The notes below the pieces were generated by a model. The model worked only from the letters and a program-made list of their open reading frames with translations, searched no databases and was not told the origin of the DNA. The position numbers were made by a program, and so were the translations under genes. A stretch of 63,759 nucleotides of DNA, the filler included, from Candidatus Nanoarchaeia archaeon (GTDB lineage: Archaea > Nanobdellota > Nanobdellia > Woesearchaeales > DATDTY01): assembly GCA_035290625.1 (NCBI GenBank). It is 5 parts of 5 records of this genome, joined end to end, with 100 filler letters (N's around TTAATTAATTAA, not from the genome) between each part and the next. Parts side by side here need not be neighbours in the genome. Positions count along the whole stretch, not along the records: positions 1 to 28,774 come from DATDTY010000049.1; 4 more parts are not named here. One strand, given 5' to 3'. Below, in pieces: positions 11,360 through 63,759 of this stretch (position 1 is its first letter; each line of letters begins with the position of its first letter).

Positions 11360-11672
11360 ACCCCCCATTCCGGCAATTCTTGCAGCTTTGGCATTAGGCT
11401 TGGCGTTTGCCCTCTTTGGGCCTTCAGGAATTAGGTCCATCCTCACACTCTTCCTCTATGCTGTTCCTGTGTATGTCATCCTGCTGAAATCACCCCTCAG
11501 CCAAGCCGAGAAGGCCATTTATTCCCTCTTTATTGGAATTGGCATCATTCCCTCATTTGCCTACTGGCTGAGCCTCAAATATGCCTCATTGTCGGCTGCA
11601 GCAGCTATCGTCTTTTTTCTCTTGATTGGGGTAGGAGTCTTCATAAACAAAAGGCAACACACGGCTCAGTAG
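11349..11672 (+). CDS. Small 4-TM membrane protein
   Basis: 107 aa hydrophobic; similar to 13015-13419 (EK..GIGI); stop codon supplied by the TIR of element A. Confidence 0.6.
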   Translation: MLNKPPIPAILAALALGLAFALFGPSGIRSILTLFLYAVPVYVILLKSPLSQAEKAIYSLFIGIGIIPSFAYWLSLKYASLSAAAAIVFFLLIGVGVFINKRQHTAQ

Positions 11673-11864
11673 AAAGTCGTCATTGCCGCCCTTCGTGAGG
11701 CCCTGCTCAGCTCAAATGCAGACCGACAAGGGGGTAGTCCCATTCGGGGGATGTCGGTTTATTCAAAGTACAATGCAAGCCGAAATGCCCCGAAGGAGCG
11801 ACCAAAAATGTGAAGCATTTTTGAGTACCGGCGGCAATCGCAAAGCGAGACTTTCTACTGAGCC
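11663..11864 (+). mobile_element. MITE-like element A carrying a structured, putative dual-guide RNA
   Basis: 16-bp TIR GGCTCAGTAGAAAGTC/GACTTTCTACTGAGCC; degenerate 9-bp TSD GCAACACAC/GCAACTCCC; conserved internal fold. Confidence 0.8.
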
Positions 11865-13014: not shown

Positions 13015-13419
13015 TTATATGCTGCTCTCCCTCCTGCTTGCAGATCTCCATATGATCCAACCACCTACCAGAAGCATAACCAATGGTATAATCACTGAAT
13101 GATACTTCAAATCCAATCCGATAATCGACAGATTATATCCAACCACGCCAAACACAGCAATGCCTATACCTGCCCCAATCACAACCCTTTCCAGGAAATC
13201 CAACTTCGATTGCCAATAAAGCATTAAACTCCACCCCGGCAAAATAAACATCCACCACAACAAGGCAGCAATCCTCGTCGTAACCAAGAACGATTCATTG
13301 TAAAAAATAATCTTTAATAAAATAATCAAGCCCAACACTATATAAATCAGATACAAGCATTCTTTCTTTATCATAGAAACTACATCTTTATCCAAGGCAG
13401 TCATCTCCTGGGTTTTCAT
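13015..13419 (-). CDS. Small membrane protein, paralog of 11349-11672
   Basis: FILPGW..LDFLERVVIGAGIGI; 4 TM. Confidence 0.6.
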   Translation of the reverse strand: MKTQEMTALDKDVVSMIKKECLYLIYIVLGLIILLKIIFYNESFLVTTRIAALLWWMFILPGWSLMLYWQSKLDFLERVVIGAGIGIAVFGVVGYNLSIIGLDLKYHSVIIPLVMLLVGGWIIWRSASRRESSI

Positions 13420-15964: not shown

Positions 15965-16591
15965 TGAGCCAGAAATCTCCGCAGTTTACTGCGTGAGATG
16001 AATGGCTCAGTAAACTATTTCTACTACAAAAATAAAAAAATGCGTGGCGAACGAATTTTTGCGCCACGCACTAACATCTCAAGTTAGCGTGAGCTTTCTT
16101 CGCCGGAGCGCGAGCAAAATGGCAACCCTTGAAATGAAACATTATGCCCACAAAGTCGACGTGAACGTGCATCATCTGGAATGGTGCACAAAGTACCGCT
16201 ACAAGATGTTTAAGCAGGAAGAGTATAAAAATCTAGCTGAAGAAATTTTGCGCGAGACCGCGCAAAGGCATAATATCCTCTTCCGCGAACTGTTTGTTAT
16301 GCCTGAGCACATCCACGCAAGCGTTGAAGCTCCAATGTCAATGAGCCAAAGCAAAGTGCTTCAGTTGCTTAAAGGAAATCTGAGCTATCAATTATTTCGG
16401 CGGCAGCCGAAATTCCGGCTGCGCTATCCGCAGGGGCATTTCTTCAGCCCAGGAGCTTATGCTGGCAGCGTCGGCTACAACACGGTTGATGTCGTCGACA
16501 GCTATGTAAGAAATCAGGCAGACATACACCAGATGCGCCTGCCGTCGTTCACGTCAGGAAGCCCCGCACTTTAGTGCGGGGAGGAGGTCAC
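15965..16591 (+). mobile_element. IS200/IS605-family element, TnpA only
   Basis: Left-end hairpin CTCCGCAGTTTACTGCGTGAG and right-end hairpin CCCCGCACTTTAGTGCGGGG followed by AGGAGGTCAC; boundaries approximate. Confidence 0.8.
16119..16574 (+). CDS. tnpA: IS200-type Y1 HUH transposase
   Basis: HLEWCTKYR, HIH (HuH) motif, LKG, YVRNQ catalytic Tyr. Confidence 0.9.
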   Translation: MATLEMKHYAHKVDVNVHHLEWCTKYRYKMFKQEEYKNLAEEILRETAQRHNILFRELFVMPEHIHASVEAPMSMSQSKVLQLLKGNLSYQLFRRQPKFRLRYPQGHFFSPGAYAGSVGYNTVDVVDSYVRNQADIHQMRLPSFTSGSPAL

Positions 16592-18995: not shown

Positions 18996-19039
18996 AGCTT
19001 GTAAAATCACTACAATCTTTATAAATATGGTGGTTCTGA

Positions 19040-20006
19040 GGCTCGATTGCAAGTTCCATCTTAACCCCTCGCCAACATATTATGCGTAAAGCACTTCATA
19101 TAGAAGTGCCTTGCCTGCATGCCGACGGACTTCCCCCGTAAGGTTTCTCCCATGCCTCGTTTGAGCATGCTATTCGCAGTTTCAGTCAGTGACCTTCTAT
19201 GGTAGCTTCTCCCAGGCCATTTCCGACGCAATTGCTTGCGTCGCGACCCTTTTGTCCTATGCACAAGAACCTCCTTATGCCTCAAAGGAGCAACGCCTTT
19301 CCCTCCAAGTTCAAGCACTTTGTCATGGAAGCGCTCCTGAGCATCAAATTCAGTATCTGCTACTATGCTCTTCCCTTTTACCCATGACCCAAGCAACTTA
19401 TCAAGGTCATCTAAGCCATTCCTCCTAGGATAAGCATAGATAACAGCGTCTATAATCCTTAAGCTTCGAGTTCCTGTTGCTATAGTGACCTTCCTATTCG
19501 GCTCCCTTTCCAGCACCCTCTTTGTGCGCTTACAGTATGCTACGCTGGGCCTGCTGATCTGGAAATGGGTAGGGTCAAGTGCTATGCACTTGTCTCTGCC
19601 GCCTTTGCCGCTTAGCTGGACAAGCTTGCGGTAAAAGCGTGGCGGAATGCGTCGCCATGCACGCCACAGCGTCGAAGAATCAGGAAAGGTTTTAAGCCTG
19701 AGACTTAGCGGAGGGCAAGACTCCACAAGCCTCCTAAATCGCTTGTAGCTCTTGTCTGCCATGCAAAACAGGACATAGAGAACAAGTATCAAGTGCACAT
19801 CATATCTTTCGTTCTTGGTCTTGCTCCAGTGCTTTGGCACGTCGTGGTTTCTTAGGAACTTGAATGTCTTAGCAACAACTTTATTAAGGTCTACATCATA
19901 TGTTCTCTTTCGCATTGTGGGGTCTCCACCACCCCCATCTATCCATTAGATGGGGGCTGAAGCCCCCTTAAATCTTTCTAATTGTGAGTTAACTTGCAAT
20001 CGAGCC
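19040..20006 (-). mobile_element. IS5-family insertion sequence
   Basis: Perfect 16-bp TIRs GGCTCGATTGCAAGTT (19040-55) / AACTTGCAATCGAGCC (19991-20006); no TSD seen. Confidence 0.85.
19061..19915 (-). CDS. IS5-family DDE transposase
   Basis: PDSSTLWR, IALDPTHF, IVADTEFD, YHRRSLTETANSMLKR. Confidence 0.85.
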   Translation of the reverse strand: MRKRTYDVDLNKVVAKTFKFLRNHDVPKHWSKTKNERYDVHLILVLYVLFCMADKSYKRFRRLVESCPPLSLRLKTFPDSSTLWRAWRRIPPRFYRKLVQLSGKGGRDKCIALDPTHFQISRPSVAYCKRTKRVLEREPNRKVTIATGTRSLRIIDAVIYAYPRRNGLDDLDKLLGSWVKGKSIVADTEFDAQERFHDKVLELGGKGVAPLRHKEVLVHRTKGSRRKQLRRKWPGRSYHRRSLTETANSMLKRGMGETLRGKSVGMQARHFYMKCFTHNMLARG

Positions 20007-20050
20007 CATCCTCCTCAACCTTTAAATATCCCCACTAATCCCTCTTTTTA

Positions 20051-24034: not shown

Positions 24035-24242
24035 GGCTCAGTGGCTCAGTAGAAAGTCTCGGCGTGGCTTGCGAGTAAGCCCCTTATCACCCGCTCACAA
24101 GCCGCCGGTTGCCGCCAGCTCGGCTCTTCATCTTTTCAGCAAAGAGCGGCACCACCCCGTATGGGACAACCCCCTCCGCTGCTGATGCCTCGACTGGTTG
24201 AGCCTCGCAAAAAAGGCGGCAACGCAGACTTTCTACTGAGCC
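24035..24242 (-). mobile_element. MITE-like element B carrying a structured, putative dual-guide RNA
   Basis: Same 16-bp TIR as A (tip GGCTCAGT tandemly doubled at 24035-50); TSD GCTTTTTTC/CCTTTTTTC. Confidence 0.8.
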
Positions 24243-27200: not shown

Positions 27201-27720
27201 CCTTGACAGGAAGGATGCCGCATTCGCAAGTCCGAGAGGCAATGAGTATCCCAGGAACCTCCTAATCATGTCAGAGACCGAAGAAGAGATGGTTGTTTTC
27301 GAATCAGGAAACCCGAATGTCGGATTCACAGTGTTTCCAACCAAGACAGGATATATGATGATCCTTTCTTCTCCTGAGCATGTCGGCTCTGTCTTTCAGC
27401 GGCTCTTCTTTATGGAAGGTGTTGGCCTCAGGCATTTCAAGAAGTTTACTGAGGAGAGGACGCTTAATGACAATAGGATCCTCATTTGGAAGGTGGATTG
27501 GGAAGGAGGAGAAAAGAATACCATCAATCTTACTGTCTCAGCAGCACAGGATTCAACTGGAAAAAATGAAACAGTTGCGGTTTCTCCTGCACCAAGCGGA
27601 CCAAATGAGTCTGCCCGGAATCAATCATCTCAGGCGCTCGATGATAGTATCATGTCAGTTAATGATACGATTACCAGTAATAAAACGATGAGCAACCAAT
27701 CTACAGAGGGGCTTCCCTGA
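24289..27720 (+). CDS. aglB: Oligosaccharyltransferase AglB/STT3
   Basis: DDYFW, DTD, TITE, SWWDFGH motifs; ~13 TM; acidic repetitive N-terminal extension. Confidence 0.92.
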   Translation: MAEDERPDEEDISIDFSALKKLFKRKKKEDSTLQKDTIKDASEGRPTRSSGAHSEVQSEDEIELDFSWLKRRFNKSEKAPTETSTPDSSQKEDSDLSFDFSKIKKIFRGKEEQKDDEALFHFEDVKKLFQWKKSPPSQHSAKKQEKSVITDSEIFDFKKALGWWKGNKKWAVPLLCILIVISASFFLRIQPVYLHAADGWAEQAIEAQVKQWIYGQVSQQFPNLPETQKLQQVELQFQAISQEHGNELKQQREVQARLFREKLQDENGQTYLRLIDDYFWLLAAERILRNGYPGDELRLGTGPYRATLRPWDNHMYAPAGAYSDVSLHPYIAAYTTRLLRLLNPGISVKSVLFYLPLIVSLLTIVPAFFIVHRVTGPLGGFFSALLLAIHPVILDRTVAGAADTDPYNLLFPLLIVWAFLEAGYATNIWWRICLGAVAGVLVGLYAFTWIGWWYIFDMLLIGGIAFLAYSAIMNSSKSRFAWGFAYSFAVFILLATLTGLWLISSEKFVNFATQPAAFASLKTIKAADLWPNVYSTITEQRSITTQQAITEAGAGMRLLFFAAVLGIFSLWLSPHSLKAKKYWLLACLFWLLLLISFPPSSISLFLLLFAVPFIVISLVERSANPNLLMGMILLIWFAVSMYATIQGIRFILLLAPAVSLGAGILAGRIYYWFSDRFAQSLRITSEVSRLCIAGVLLLLLAIPATNAVSAARSVFPLFDDAWFAALTKIKEQSQPNAIITSWWDFGHLYKAIADRAVTFDGASQSSPQAHWVGKMFITKDENLSIGILRMLDCSGYNSGVGGFDELNHVVNDTPKAARLVEKVIAQSDRTAAQKILLSNGFSQQEADAVLDKTHCAPPEAFIVTSNDLVSKANVWWHFGLWDFEKAQIYQSFRTSPDLLNRKNAISYLKERYNYTDRKADQTYNELQSLSEGDANSWIAPPPAYDANAVRPCAGDARELQCVFSGLTAKVSLDRKDAAFASPRGNEYPRNLLIMSETEEEMVVFESGNPNVGFTVFPTKTGYMMILSSPEHVGSVFQRLFFMEGVGLRHFKKFTEERTLNDNRILIWKVDWEGGEKNTINLTVSAAQDSTGKNETVAVSPAPSGPNESARNQSSQALDDSIMSVNDTITSNKTMSNQSTEGLP

Positions 27721-27905
27721 AAATGTAGTTGCCGTTAATTCGTGAGGCTCTTAACCTTAAAGACGGAAAACCGACAAGGGAGTTGCCCCCTACGGGGAAT
27801 GTCGGTCACCACCATCATATGCGCAGCCGAGCCGGTGGCTAGCGAGCAAGCTCGCATTGCTCGCTTGCAAGCCACCGCAACCTCGAAGAGATTTTCAGGG
27901 AAGCC
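27710..27905 (+). mobile_element. MITE-like element C carrying a structured, putative dual-guide RNA
   Basis: 15-bp TIR GGCTTCCCTGAAAAT/ATTTTCAGGGAAGCC; TSD CTACAGAGG/CTACAGAAG; supplies the aglB stop codon. Confidence 0.78.
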
Positions 27906-28615: not shown

Positions 28616-28634
28616 TAGGTGTAGTTGTTCTAAC

Positions 28635-28774
28635 TGTCTTATCCCGAAACTATTTCCCTACGGTGAGTTACATTGGAGCATGAAACTCACCAGAGGGAAG
28701 CTTATGGAGACCATAAGGCGCAAGAATGATGGCTGGACAACCTATCAAGCGAGGAAAATAGCCCGTGTTAGTAT
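28635..28774 (+). mobile_element. IS481-like element, left end and transposase start, cut by gap
   Basis: Begins TGT; ORF at 28680 MKLTRGKLMETIRRKNDGWTTYQARKIARVS; identical to 47375-47511. Confidence 0.65.
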
Positions 28775-41119: not shown

Positions 41120-41415
41120 AAATGCCGGTTTTTTTGCAGCGCATACTTCAAATCGCATGCACCAGTCCTTATGTTGTTGCTATTATCCTGCTGCGCTTCC
41201 ATCCCACGAGCTTAGGGCTGCCCAGTCGTCAAAGAAATCTTTCCCTGATAATAACTCTCGCCTATTTGACACGGCTGATGCTGAGATGCGCAATCTTTCT
41301 CGCCTGATACATTGTCCAGCCCTCGTTTTTCCTTCGGATCGTTTCCACGAGCTTCCCTTGTGAGTTTCATGCATGGAAGAAACTCACCGTAGGGAAATAG
41401 TTTCGGGATAACACA
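41120..41415 (-). pseudogene. Decayed IS481-like copy (frameshifted transposase 5' part)
   Basis: Reverse complement starts TGTGTTATCCCGAAACTATTTCCCTACGGTGAGTT like 28635/47375; frameshift after MKLTR; inner boundary approximate. Confidence 0.65.
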
Positions 41416-42625: not shown

Positions 42626-42662
42626 TTGCAAAAAGGCGGCAACGCCGACTTTCTGCTGAGCC
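42626..42662 (-). repeat. Truncated 5' fragment (H) of the MITE/guide-RNA family
   Basis: Reverse complement GGCTCAGCAGAAAGTCGGCGTTGCCGCCTTTTTGC, near-identical to the 5' end of B; first G overlaps the PMM stop codon. Confidence 0.7.
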
Positions 42663-46042: not shown

Positions 46043-46057
46043 GGCTCCGGTGAAAAT
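46043..46057 (+). repeat. Solo TIR of the MITE family
   Basis: GGCTCCGGTGAAAAT, hybrid of the D and G TIRs, just downstream of a + strand stop. Confidence 0.45.
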
Positions 46058-46799: not shown

Positions 46800-47360
46800 A
46801 TGAAAAACCAGCATAAAAACCAGCGGGTAGGAGTCTTTATAGATGTGCAGAATATGTATTATTCTGCAAGGCAGCTGTTTGATTCAAAGGTGAACTTTGC
46901 AGGCATTCTGAAAACAGCTACGCAGGGAAGGCAGCTGATCCGTGCAATTGCGTACGTGATCAAGGCAGATATTGGAGAGGAAAAGCCGTTTTTTGAGGCT
47001 CTGGAGCACATTGGCTATGAGCTCAGATCAAAAGACCTCCAGGTATTCCTTGGAGGGGCAAAAAAGGGAGATTGGGATGTTGGCATCGCCATGGACATCA
47101 TGCGTCTTGCATCCAAGCTCGATGTTGTTGTCCTGGTATCCGGAGACGGAGATTTCAAAGACCTTGTGGAGCATGCCAAAGCCCTTGGCTGCAAGGCAGA
47201 AGTCATCTCCTTTGCCCGAACCACGTCCTCAAGGCTCCGGGAGGTTGCGGATCTCTTCACCGACATGGAAAAAGACAAGAGCAAATACCTCATTGCGCGA
47301 AAATCTCCCCGGAAGGTGGAAGTGCCTGCCGATCCCAAACCGGCTTCGGTGAAAATGTAG
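46800..47360 (+). CDS. NYN-domain (LabA/DUF88) protein
   Basis: FIDVQNMY, KGDWDVGIAMD, VSGDGDF. Confidence 0.88.
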   Translation: MKNQHKNQRVGVFIDVQNMYYSARQLFDSKVNFAGILKTATQGRQLIRAIAYVIKADIGEEKPFFEALEHIGYELRSKDLQVFLGGAKKGDWDVGIAMDIMRLASKLDVVVLVSGDGDFKDLVEHAKALGCKAEVISFARTTSSRLREVADLFTDMEKDKSKYLIARKSPRKVEVPADPKPASVKM

Positions 47361-47366
47361 TTGCCG
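47342..47366 (+). repeat. Truncated 5' fragment (G) of the MITE family, followed by an IS481-like end
   Basis: GGCTTCGGTGAAAATGTAGTTGCCG matches the 5' end of C (GGCTTCCCTGAAAATGTAGTTGCCG); flanked by CCCAAACC repeats; supplies the NYN stop. Confidence 0.65.
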
Positions 47367-47374
47367 CCCAAACC

Positions 47375-47511
47375 TGTCTTATCCCGAAACTATTTCCCTA
47401 CGGTGAGTTACATTGGAGCATGAAACTCACCAGAGGGAAGCTTATGGAGACCATAAGGCGCAAGAATGATGGCTGGACAACCTATCAAGCGAGGAAAATA
47501 GCCCGTGTTAG
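47375..47511 (+). mobile_element. IS481-like element left end, cut by gap
   Basis: Identical to 28635-28771. Confidence 0.65.
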
Positions 47512-52851: not shown

Positions 52852-53008
52852 AACTCCGGTGAAAGTCGGAGCTGCCGTCCATTTTCGAGGCTTTTTTTTC
52901 GTCACAATGTGCAGCGACAAGGGGGGCGTCCCTCACGGGGATATGTCGCTTTGAGCTGAGGCATTCGGAGCCGAGACTGGCGACAGCCACGAAGTGAGAC
53001 TTTCACCT
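52852..53008 (+). mobile_element. MITE-like element D carrying a structured, putative dual-guide RNA
   Basis: Eroded TIR core GGTGAAAGTC/GACTTTCACC; flanks GCTAACCCAA/GCTGACCCAA; conserved fold. Confidence 0.72.
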
Positions 53009-54840: not shown

Positions 54841-55881
54841 ATGGCTGCATTGACCGAGATTCTTCAGAACCCTTATGTTACTGCTCTTGCCATCTTTCTT
54901 GGATTCTTCATCGGAGCAAAGATTGTCCATTTTGTCATTGAGAGAGTCATTTCCAGGCTTGCTGCAAAGACGACAACAAAGCTTGATGACCTGCTCATCG
55001 ACAGGACGAAAGGACCGATGACCTTGCTGATTCTTCTCTACGGCCTTTTCCTTGGCCTGCAGCCTTTGCCGATTCATGAAAGATATTTTGAGATTATCAT
55101 CAGCGCCCTCCATAGCGCCTTGATCCTGCTGCTGTTCTTTATCAGCATCAGGATCCTTGATGCGCTGATCGATGTATGGGGGCAAAGGATTGCGGCAAGG
55201 ACAAAGAATGTTGTCGATGACGAGCTGTTCAAGATTTTCCACAGGTTTTCCAGGATTTTCATCAGCATCATCGCATTTTTGACAGTGCTGGCCTACTGGG
55301 GCGTTGAGATCGGGCCGCTGCTTACGGGATTGGGCATTGGAGGCATAGCAATTGCCTTTGCGCTGCAGAACTCCTTGGGAAACATCTTTGGAGGGATATC
55401 CCTCATCATTGACAAAAGCGTCAAGGTGGGGGATGTGATAGAGATTGATGAGACGACAAGCGGCAAAATCATTGACGTTGGGTTGAGGAGCACCAAAATC
55501 AGGACCTGGGACAATGAGGTTGTGATTATTCCAAACGGAAAGCTTGCAGATTCAAAGATCAAGAACATGATCCTGCCCGACCCTTCAATCAGGGCCATCG
55601 TGAAATTCGGGGTTGAATACGGGTCTGATCCAGAAAAGGTCAAGAAGGTTGTTTTGGGTGTTGTCAAGAAGATTCCGACTGTGCTTGCAGATCCTGCCCC
55701 TTCAGTTGAGTTTCTCGAGATGGGGGATTTCAGCCTGAACTTCAGGGCTACCATGTGGGTCAAGGATTACAATGAACGGTGGCATACAAAGCTGAAAGCG
55801 ACTGAGGACATCTACCTTGCTTTGAACAGGGCGAAGATTGGAATACCGTTCCCGACAAGGACGATTTACATGAAGAAGTGA
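54841..55881 (+). CDS. mscS: Small-conductance mechanosensitive channel
   Basis: GLGIGGIAIAFALQ..NIFGG, VGLRSTKI, IPN, IGIPFPTR. Confidence 0.9.
   Translation: MAALTEILQNPYVTALAIFLGFFIGAKIVHFVIERVISRLAAKTTTKLDDLLIDRTKGPMTLLILLYGLFLGLQPLPIHERYFEIIISALHSALILLLFFISIRILDALIDVWGQRIAARTKNVVDDELFKIFHRFSRIFISIIAFLTVLAYWGVEIGPLLTGLGIGGIAIAFALQNSLGNIFGGISLIIDKSVKVGDVIEIDETTSGKIIDVGLRSTKIRTWDNEVVIIPNGKLADSKIKNMILPDPSIRAIVKFGVEYGSDPEKVKKVVLGVVKKIPTVLADPAPSVEFLEMGDFSLNFRATMWVKDYNERWHTKLKATEDIYLALNRAKIGIPFPTRTIYMKK
55849..55881 (+). repeat. 33-bp direct repeat (mscS 3' end); second copy at 57530-57562
   Basis: TTCCCGACAAGGACGATTTA(C/T)ATGAAGAAGTGA, one mismatch. Confidence 0.85.
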
Positions 55882-57288: not shown

Positions 57289-57490
57289 GGCTCAGTAGAA
57301 AGTCAGTCGGCATCAGGCTCGCTTGCGCTTGTATTCGCGTATGCTGACACCCCCGAAGGTGCTAAAAAGAGCTACGCTCTTTTGGAACACCAAAACGCCC
57401 GATGGCGTTTTGATTGGGGCAACCCTCCGTCAGCACTGCTTATCTGGGTAAGGAAGCTCGCAGAATTGATGCCGGACTTTCTACTGAGCC
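57289..57490 (-). mobile_element. MITE-like element E carrying a structured, putative dual-guide RNA
   Basis: Same 16-bp TIR as A and B; perfect 9-bp TSD GGTTTTTAT (57280-88 / 57491-99). Confidence 0.82.
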
Positions 57491-57574
57491 GGTTTTTATG
57501 GATTGTTGAGGTCTCAGGAGAAGATACGATTCCCGACAAGGACGATTTATATGAAGAAGTGATTCTTATATCCA

Positions 57575-63618: not shown

Positions 63619-63759
63619 GGCTCTGTCCTGAATCTCTTTTTTAAGATACTTTTAAGTAAAAGGCTGCCCCGTTCAGGTTTTACCCTGATTGGGGCAGGGT
63701 GGAGGACTAGCTCCACCATGGACGAAGAAAACAAACTGGTTAAAAAAGTTAAGCGTCTC
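63619..63759 (+). mobile_element. Left end of a second IS5-family element (ORF from 63718, truncated)
   Basis: GGCTCTGTCCTGAATC, TTTAAG, hairpin, GGTGGAGG, ATG: same layout as the upstream end of the 19040-20006 IS; ORF MDEENKLVKKVKRL. Confidence 0.55.

Follow-up and report, generated by a model that had tools for sequence, protein, structure and literature searches.

Several RNAs that recognise two targets, namely the IS110 bridge RNA, the TIGR tigRNA and the archaeal C/D and H/ACA sRNAs, combine a scaffold with two variable single strands, and their guide strands measure roughly 9-12 nt. Among transposable elements, IS5-family members of the IS903 group are described as carrying a single ORF in ~0.9-1 kb, bounded by TIRs of 15-19 bp and flanked by 9-bp duplications (PMC3281130). 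MITEs moved by IS5-family elements are an already known kind (PMC10969869, PMC3281130), and the available part of an archaeal IS survey of 2026 mentions MITEs in passing (PMC13343696). In yeast, the Ty3 intasome contacts TBP in TFIIIB (10.1101/2021.07.27.453949).

The locus compared with these systems here is a window of 63,759 nucleotides, by which we mean the whole stretch of DNA analysed; it consists of five contigs (C49, C52, C57, C59 and C66) with N spacers between them. Its source assembly (G000) comprises 1.37 Mb in 84 contigs at 46% GC, and no genome of the same family was found among 40 relatives compared. IS loci related to those of G000 are mostly labelled Woesearchaeota or Nanoarchaeota, which points to a DPANN archaeon, and the sequencing runs that contain window sequence are groundwater and soil DNA runs, with no RNA run among those listed. 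Our best overall explanation, with a probability of about 0.7, is that the short cassettes scattered through this genome are MITEs moved by transposases of a clade of ~0.9-kb IS5 elements, that these transposases probably dock at promoters, and that the structured core of the cassettes is under selection for its fold. What goes beyond an ordinary MITE is the TATA-anchored insertion of IS5 elements and a cargo that is selected for its fold and swapped between transposon ends.

Cassettes and remnants in the window

Allowing up to 3 mismatches, the window contains 7 occurrences of the A/B/E-type TIR, where 0.52 are expected; the elements are given in Table 1. The duplications that the initial annotation had given for cassettes E, C and A came out the same on re-reading (9/9, 8/9 and 7/9), and its view that the insertions are of different ages is supported. 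Next to cassette B, the first 8 bp of the TIR are repeated in tandem (24035-24042), and the duplication of 8/9 stands only if this repeat is counted inside the element. The flanks of cassette D do agree at 9/10 in the register first chosen, but the true TIR is of the G type, decayed on the left and shortened on the right. Stump G is no full cassette, and another repeat starts downstream of it at 47375.

Table 1. Mobile elements and associated features of the window, numbered along its full length
Feature	Position	Strand	Remarks
Cassette A	11663..11864	+	A/B/E-type TIR and core fold, with hairpin module M2; 7/9 duplication; TATA absent from the nearest 60 nt
TATA-like box	19018..19025	-	15 nt from IS end; serves MscS-like gene
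8-bp target duplication, left-hand IS copy	19032..19039		Twin on contig C42
IS5-family insertion sequence	19040..20006	-	967 bp, perfect 16-bp TIRs 19040-19055 and 19991-20006
DDE transposase, 284 aa	19061..19915	-	Invariant D114, D187, E245; Y238-R241-E245-K252
TATA-like box	20021..20028	+	15 nt from other IS end; serves epimerase gene
Cassette B	24043..24242	-	Module M3; duplication 8/9; TATA at 16
Cassette C	27710..27905	+	C-type TIR, module M4; duplication 8/9; TATA at 16
B-type cassette left-end remnant	42630..42662	-	33 bp
Stump G	47342..47365	+	24 bp: left TIR and first helix only, between 8/9 duplications
Cassette D	52852..53007	+	G-type TIR, left decayed, right shortened; core intact
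Cassette E	57289..57490	-	Module M1; perfect 9-bp duplication; TATA at 16
IS5 left end and first 14 codons	63619..63759	+	~0.9-kb clade; cut by contig end

Double-hairpin modules of 40-58 nt are located at approximately 57330-57390 (M1), 11790-11830 (M2), 24065-24105 (M3) and 27835-27880 (M4). Their 55 instances (16, 22, 7 and 10 for M1 to M4) all sit at fixed positions inside cassettes of several TIR types, and they look like second-order mobile modules. Beside cassette E, 39 bp from the 3' end of the MscS gene are present a second time (55843-55881 and 57524-57562), and a solo G-type TIR with a TATA-like box close behind is found at 46043 (C52:17169).

Mobility of the cassette family

Throughout G000, iterated nhmmer returned 182 cassette matches, which amount to 2.3% of the genome, and a covariance model at least 145 cores (150 of 454 candidates scored). 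The cassettes are 141-262 bp in size and have TIR pairs and no transposase ORF. The TIR type is the same at both ends for 109 of the 145 parsed cores, and 59 of these 109 cassettes have kept a target duplication, against a mean of 0.42 (maximum 3) over 300 re-pairings. Duplication length tracks TIR type, with 13 perfect 8-mers and no 9-mer in 23 CATTG-type cassettes and 9 perfect 9-mers in 31 of the A/B/E type. Identical cassettes that had collapsed at contig ends pair into four duplications (8/8, 8/8, 7/8 and 9/9), and in other genomes a duplication is retained by 15 of the 28 cassettes with ends scored, including one in G015 with the A/B/E TIR and a perfect 9-mer. As TIRs, target duplications and identical copies at different sites are all present, the cassettes are MITEs that arose as DDE-type insertions, and the mobility proposed from the TIRs and ~9-bp duplications of the window extends to ~180 TIR-bounded cassettes.

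No joint that skips cassette A, B or C or the IS at 19040 was seen among the joints listed for contigs of four runs. Empty orthologous sites were likewise not encountered, loci fetched from elsewhere matching G000 only at 64-79%, and the empty promoters of other species are too diverged to compare for a single target copy. Viral contigs gave 2 TIR matches without core, 0 matches to the core pattern and 3 weak transposase matches. The lengths of the elements show weak helical phasing (R 0.29 at 10.5).

The insertion sequence at 19040-20006

The boundaries first given for this IS and for its ORF (19061-19915) hold. Across 60 aligned sequences D114, D187, Y238, R241, E245 and K252 are invariant in the numbering of the 19061 protein, which thereby matches Y-x2-R-x3-E-x6-K (YREK-type), a pattern that we take to be the IS5-family signature. 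The protein scores E 3.6e-28 and 98.9 bits against NF033579, under the cut-off of 140, and is a divergent relative; the Pfam search with it gave no match, nor did a sequence search of solved structures, and its 310 homologues include many with PF01609.

The IS had appeared to be without a target duplication, which is an artefact of assembly. The 8 bases to the left of 19040 exactly repeat the 8 bases to the right of the copy on C42, and the IS ends on C50 and C25 likewise pair into an exact 8-bp duplication, with three ends left unpaired. Further ends of this type lie at contig breaks (3 left and 2 right, 99-100% identical), and the copy number in the assembly is at least 4. Public unitigs from four runs stop at both ends of the IS, whose depth is ~7-10x that of its flanks when relatives at 88% likeness are included. 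The IS is a collapsed multicopy repeat, and contig C49 is a mis-join that fuses two different copies; no duplication is visible around the IS because its two flanks come from different copies. The flank pairs C49/C42 and C50/C25 together with the unitig breaks therefore show that this IS makes 8-bp duplications, and its end at the TATA box of the epimerase gene is a second, separate insertion. A collapsed IS can thus both mask its own duplication and mis-join a contig.

The IS has core-less MITEs of its own. Two of 219 bp on C15 and C30 share 21 and 18 terminal bases with it, and a third on C17 is decayed; all three are without the core. The interior of the latter (C17:1431-1627) matches a dispersed repeat on C33, C67, C84, C55 and C28. 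In the clade of the 19061 protein the own TIR type is kept in 7 of 7 full elements where a TIR pair was found, and duplications are mostly 8 bp (L451 and L454; 9 bp in L453).

Positions 1-915 of the window are an IS6-family element (NF033587 above cut-off) that is collapsed too, at 7 contig ends. A different multicopy repeat is present at 28634-28774, 47375-47511 and 41357-41415, the last of which is an older copy; one of its ends is seen at 6 contig ends, and a second group of 8 contig ends may be the other end. At 13120-13138, inside the ORF 13015-13419, four runs depart from the assembly at 8 shared positions within 19 bp, which could be an assembly error or a hypervariable patch. The window further contains an IS200-type Y1 transposase (16044-16574). 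Elsewhere in G000, one reverse transcriptase was found (C68:38030), with no link to the cassettes shown. A DDE_Tnp_1 match on C61 (L001) was rejected as a related element; this DDE element of 516 aa is unrelated, its contig is short and differs in character, and it is possibly a contaminant.

Transposases that probably move the cassettes

IS5 loci were taken from genomes of the order, from GTDB contigs and from one metagenome pattern scan, in which the loci were chosen by cassette TIR pattern and 20 of 119 held a transposase piece above 40 bits. Some genome and locus tallies include the unpublished G131 or G315, and no sequence claim rests on either. In a tree of 78 proteins, built with a quick tree search, 51 rows form a clade of ~0.9-kb elements (99 SH-aLRT) in which TIR subgroups follow the tree and duplications are mostly 9 bp, and the 19061 protein is placed in a distant clade of 7 rows. 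Among the complete IS5 elements recovered, the best TIR match is 15 of 16 positions for the A/B/E, G and CGTTC types and 16 for the 63619 type, all of them within the clade of 51; it is 14 for ATCCA and TGCTG, 13 for C, 11 for CATTG and GTGCG, and 10 for TTTGC.

The IS5-like end noticed at 63619 is the left end of an IS5 element. Its TIR agrees at 16/16 with the complete elements L323 and L324 and is common to cassettes on C74, C9, C73 and C75, and C28:34355 is the site of a right end from this clade. In G206, a single duplication separates a cassette from the IS on which it is stacked and whose end it shares. Transposases with cognate TIRs (15-16/16) are found in the ~0.9-kb clade of other genomes, but G000 has no complete one; its assembly contains only two 63619-type ends, and an IS end bearing the A/B/E TIR is absent. 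No autonomous partner was present among the loci recovered for the C, CATTG, GTGCG and TTTGC types (best 10-13/16).

The cassettes with 9-bp duplications (A, B, C, D, E and G) are very probably moved in trans by relatives of the ~0.9-kb IS5 element at 63619, each type by a transposase with matching TIRs. The proposal that non-autonomous elements are moved in trans by DDE transposases is therefore supported by strong inference and can be narrowed to the IS5 family. A sister lineage of the 19061 clade (L456, L203, L249 and L254) has a similar TIR (14/16) and a 9-bp duplication, which means that the assignment of the partner to a clade rests on one or two bases.

The likeness of 11 of 16 positions between the A/B/E TIR and that of the IS at 19040 was confirmed, but it points to the wrong clade when read as a sign of partnership. 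With 11/16 and an 8-bp against a 9-bp duplication the two are not cognate, and this IS is probably not the mover of cassettes A, B and E; instead it would mobilise itself and its own 219-bp core-less MITEs. The reservation already expressed, that the IS may not be the exact partner, was justified by its own TIR, its 8-bp duplications and its own MITEs. It was also correctly said to lack the fold. No core was found inside any autonomous IS of the loci searched: a model search of 42, 85 and 44 loci returned 1, 2 and 5 matches, of which those in transposase-bearing loci sit outside the IS ends and the remaining three come from loci retrieved by the CATTG pattern.

It is doubtful that the 19061 transposase nevertheless serves some cassettes as a partner of relaxed specificity; the most plausible clients would be the CATTG cassettes, an 8-bp type with recent activity, and not A/B/E. 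Its element is the only complete, multicopy IS5 in the assembly and makes 8-bp duplications like the CATTG type (13 perfect of 23), for which neither 30 loci from 401 genomes nor a closer look at 5 genomes yielded an IS with CATTG ends. Against this, the CATTG and 19040 TIRs agree at only 9/16 by hand count, the 19061 clade holds to its own TIR and has its own MITEs, and the A/B/E cassettes make 9-bp duplications. Longer IS5-like proteins with frames of ~360-430 aa and no clear TIRs (L091, L104, L105, L110 and L112) are mostly single-copy and occur in many genomes of the order.

Insertion in front of promoters

A TATA-like motif was counted when it starts 10-22 nt outside an element end. By this measure it is present at 73 of 234 cassette ends, or at 60 of the 105 cassettes with both ends (the remaining 45 have no TATA at the site), against 2.4% at random sites and 0-7% in neighbouring windows, without a bias between left and right ends (38 vs 35). 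Cassettes of other genomes have the motif in 17 of 28 cases and ISs from other genomes in 49 of 63, with position 16 at 43 ends; an ATG follows the TATA by 28-30 nt in 34 of the 63 IS cases, as at archaeal promoters. Ends of the 19040 family have it in 5 of 14 by the strict motif. The distance peaks at 15 for the 8-bp type and at 16 for the 9-bp types, which places the end of the duplication about 6 bp before the TATA in each case.

One promoter, which we take to be that of the thermosome gene, carries a cassette in G000 and, with identical offset, an IS in a different genome, and another, presumably that of the EF-1 alpha gene, carries an IS elsewhere and is empty in G000. Stacks of elements are spaced one duplication apart because of repeated insertion at one spot. 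Cassettes and ISs insert ~6 bp upstream of TATA boxes at a fixed distance, and no description of TATA-anchored IS insertion was found in the open-access literature.

The mechanism behind this pattern is less firmly established. The transposases are likely to insert, in either orientation, such that the duplicated target ends ~6 bp, the extent of one BRE, upstream of the TATA box, and we infer that they would most likely dock on promoter-bound TFB/TBP or on the DNA that these proteins bend. Direct readout of A/T-rich or bent DNA is the alternative to such tethering. Docking would leave the promoters intact, and later arrivals would come to stack behind earlier ones.

The core fold

Read from 5' to 3', the core consists of a closing helix, a pyrimidine linker, a GYGAGS box, the variable strand V1, a helix, a purine run and a hairpin with a 5-nt loop, followed by a helix, the variable strand V2, an SCGARC box, the closing helix and a small hairpin. 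The fold includes a tandem G-A helix between the closing helix and the unpaired strands. Among 33 diverse copies, pairing holds in 96.7% of cells, against 32-44% in slid controls, and both sides have changed in 15 of the 24 pairs. The 51 copies from outside G000, drawn from ~40 genomes of different families and aligned by fitting to the model, reach 95.4% pairing (slid controls 27-49%), with covariation at 21 of 23 pairs. Most V1 and V2 strands measure 19-22 nt and have little sequence conservation, and pairing between them shows no excess (-4.08 vs -4.11 permuted). With 24 candidates scored per genome, the model detected the core in 43 of 150 further genomes from the order, and it was present in 25 of 150 genomes of a phylum-wide sample, all of them labelled as the same order.

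The fold also has a probable tertiary contact. Wherever the hairpin stem pair concerned is T-A, the base six upstream is A (10/10 in G000, 13/13 elsewhere), and this is seen only at spacing 6. The three-way covariation between purine run and hairpin stem has Fisher p values of 5e-9 in G000 and 1e-10 elsewhere, computed on kin that are not independent, and it would most simply be explained by a base triple. Rfam gave nothing at gathering threshold in the whole window, only chance matches on cassettes A and D (E 0.29 and 1.5), and no description of the cassette family was found in the open-access literature. A K-turn reading was rejected because the two positions ahead of the G-A pairs show Watson-Crick covariation, and a hammerhead, a 6S and an attC reading were set aside on visual comparison with the respective consensus.

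The core is shared by at least 10 TIR types. On the core tree 22 TIR changes are needed, compared with a minimum of 9 and with 59 after shuffling; starred branches force at least 3 changes for three types, and near-identical cores carry different TIRs. Cores and ends have therefore been reassorted. The loops reassort as well, since of 43 pairs with similar V2 strands 12 differ in V1. The evidence shows the ~115-nt interior to be a captured cargo under selection for its fold, and the swapping of cores between TIR types would most simply be due to gene conversion among copies. In two loci of other genomes (L071 and L078), which are possibly domesticated, the fold is kept with one or both TIRs lost.

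Role of the core

Folding z-scores of the core are alike for RNA and DNA and for sense and antisense, all between -2.6 and -2.7. G-T outnumbers A-C by 14 to 7 in G000 and by 20 to 18 elsewhere, a weak wobble bias. The tail GCGAAGC, which we take to be an unusually stable DNA mini-hairpin, is present in 33 of 145 cores, and the UNCG-like loop and purine triples of the core are presumably also known in RNA. Of the roles considered, a cis function in spread ranks above a host-level RNA, followed by a guide and lastly by a neutral relic.

Our tentative preference is for a fold that acts in cis for the spread of the element, as a structure of protein-bound ssDNA or of RNA in which the variable strands would be length spacers and not guides. 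This is favoured because the fold is kept in either orientation and without a promoter facing the cassettes, and because MITEs with the core number ~180 in G000 against 3 without it. The existence of the latter implies that the fold is not required for mobilisation in trans.

Selection at the level of the host, whereby the fold in read-through transcripts would act as a terminator, be processed or insulate the adjacent promoter so that carriers are tolerated, seems unlikely. The cassettes are intergenic and lie just upstream of promoters, and L071 and L078 keep the fold after losing TIRs. Transcripts of other prokaryotic MITEs are cut by RNases according to a review (PMC10969869). However, the cassettes have no preferred orientation towards the promoter (38 vs 35) and a weak preference in tandem gene pairs (32 vs 21), and no read-through would be expected for the 26 copies located between divergent genes.

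The initial annotation had regarded the cassettes as RNA cargo that forms a dispersed guide repertoire. According to this reading the core would be a transcribed RNA whose two ~20-nt strands address targets for an unknown effector, with transposition and shuffling building the repertoire; we judge it improbable. Loop lengths fixed at 19-22 nt with little conserved sequence, the reassortment of V1 and V2 (12 of 43 pairs), a tertiary contact that implies a specific ligand and one wobble position that favours the sense strand (T-G 10 vs C-A 1) would all suit a guide. But loops match the G000 genome about as often as their dinucleotide controls do (16 vs 12.5 of 101; 14 vs 10 of 106), matches to IS loci do not exceed control (132 vs 126 of 229), and none above control were found to the cassettes' own flanks or in paired geometry. 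Loop GC tracks host GC (r 0.51), and most of the drift in the loops takes the form of point changes. In the fragmented G000 assembly there are 0 matches to the IS110 DEDD recombinase PF01548 and 0 to TnpB/Cas12f PF07282, with IS200/605-like ends sitting at contig breaks; box C (RUGAUGA with box D) is present in 0 of 145 cores, though Nop5 is encoded in G000, and no promoter is directed into the cassettes. With no targets above chance in the genome, flanks and IS loci searched, no IS110 or TnpB-type effector in G000 and no bias between strands or between RNA and DNA, the guide repertoire is unsupported. A still more far-reaching version, in which an order-wide system of tertiary-folded two-guide RNAs between exchangeable IS5 ends, put behind promoters by transposases tethered to TFB/TBP, shuffles 20-nt strands among ~180 copies for an unknown effector, is yet less probable.

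Least probable of all is that the fold is a neutral leftover from an ancestral element whose copies look alike owing to amplification in recent times and to gene conversion, for although copies form subfamilies and exchange parts and related sequences inflate the covariation counts, two-sided changes affect 21 of 23 pairs over ~40 genomes of different families (slid controls 27-49%) and the three-way covariation recurs in separate genomes.

Comparison with known systems

A non-coding cargo with secondary and tertiary covariation is kept across an archaeal order while the transposon ends around it change. As it fills 2.3% of a small genome, the core must do something, even if only for itself. 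If its loops were guides, this would be a new programmable system; if they are not, as we tentatively prefer, the cassettes would be a selfish structured module that exploits IS5s. Like the two-guide RNAs, the core has a conserved scaffold with two variable single strands, but it differs from them in having no Rfam match, no box C, no IS110 effector in G000 and no targets above chance in the sequences searched, and in strands that are longer at ~20 nt.

Cassettes and prokaryotic MITEs such as Correia, ERIC, QMITE and the Sulfolobus elements (PMC10969869) have in common that they are short, non-coding, bounded by TIRs and direct repeats, intergenic, multicopy, able to fold and, very probably in the case of the cassettes, moved in trans. 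The cassettes differ in an interior that does not come from the partner IS, is GC-rich, covaries across an order, has a tertiary contact and is found between at least 10 types of TIR. In the available part of the same review no DPANN MITE is listed (PMC10969869).

The ISs resemble the IS903 group and the archaeal ISH1-like group in their single-ORF DDE transposase, size, TIRs and 9-bp duplications, a likeness that is based on features tabulated for the IS903 group; with respect to the IS903 group, the 19061 protein stays below the NF033579 cut-off and the 19040 element makes 8-bp duplications. A fixed distance of insertion from the TATA box was not found described for IS903-group elements in the open-access literature.

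Small archaeal IS5 transposases appear to insert at one fixed spot behind BRE-TATA, which would be a prokaryotic parallel to Ty3-TFIIIB and, if true, would make an enzyme of 280 aa a compact tool for promoter-adjacent integration. Ty3 is an LTR retrotransposon at Pol III genes for which the contact with TBP is shown, whereas the elements described here are DNA transposons that insert at archaeal mRNA promoters, upstream of the BRE, through a putative contact. In both cases a DDE-type enzyme inserts at a precise position and the host gene is spared, the position of Ty3 being set, according to the available part of its description, by an initiation complex that contains TBP (10.1101/2021.07.27.453949).
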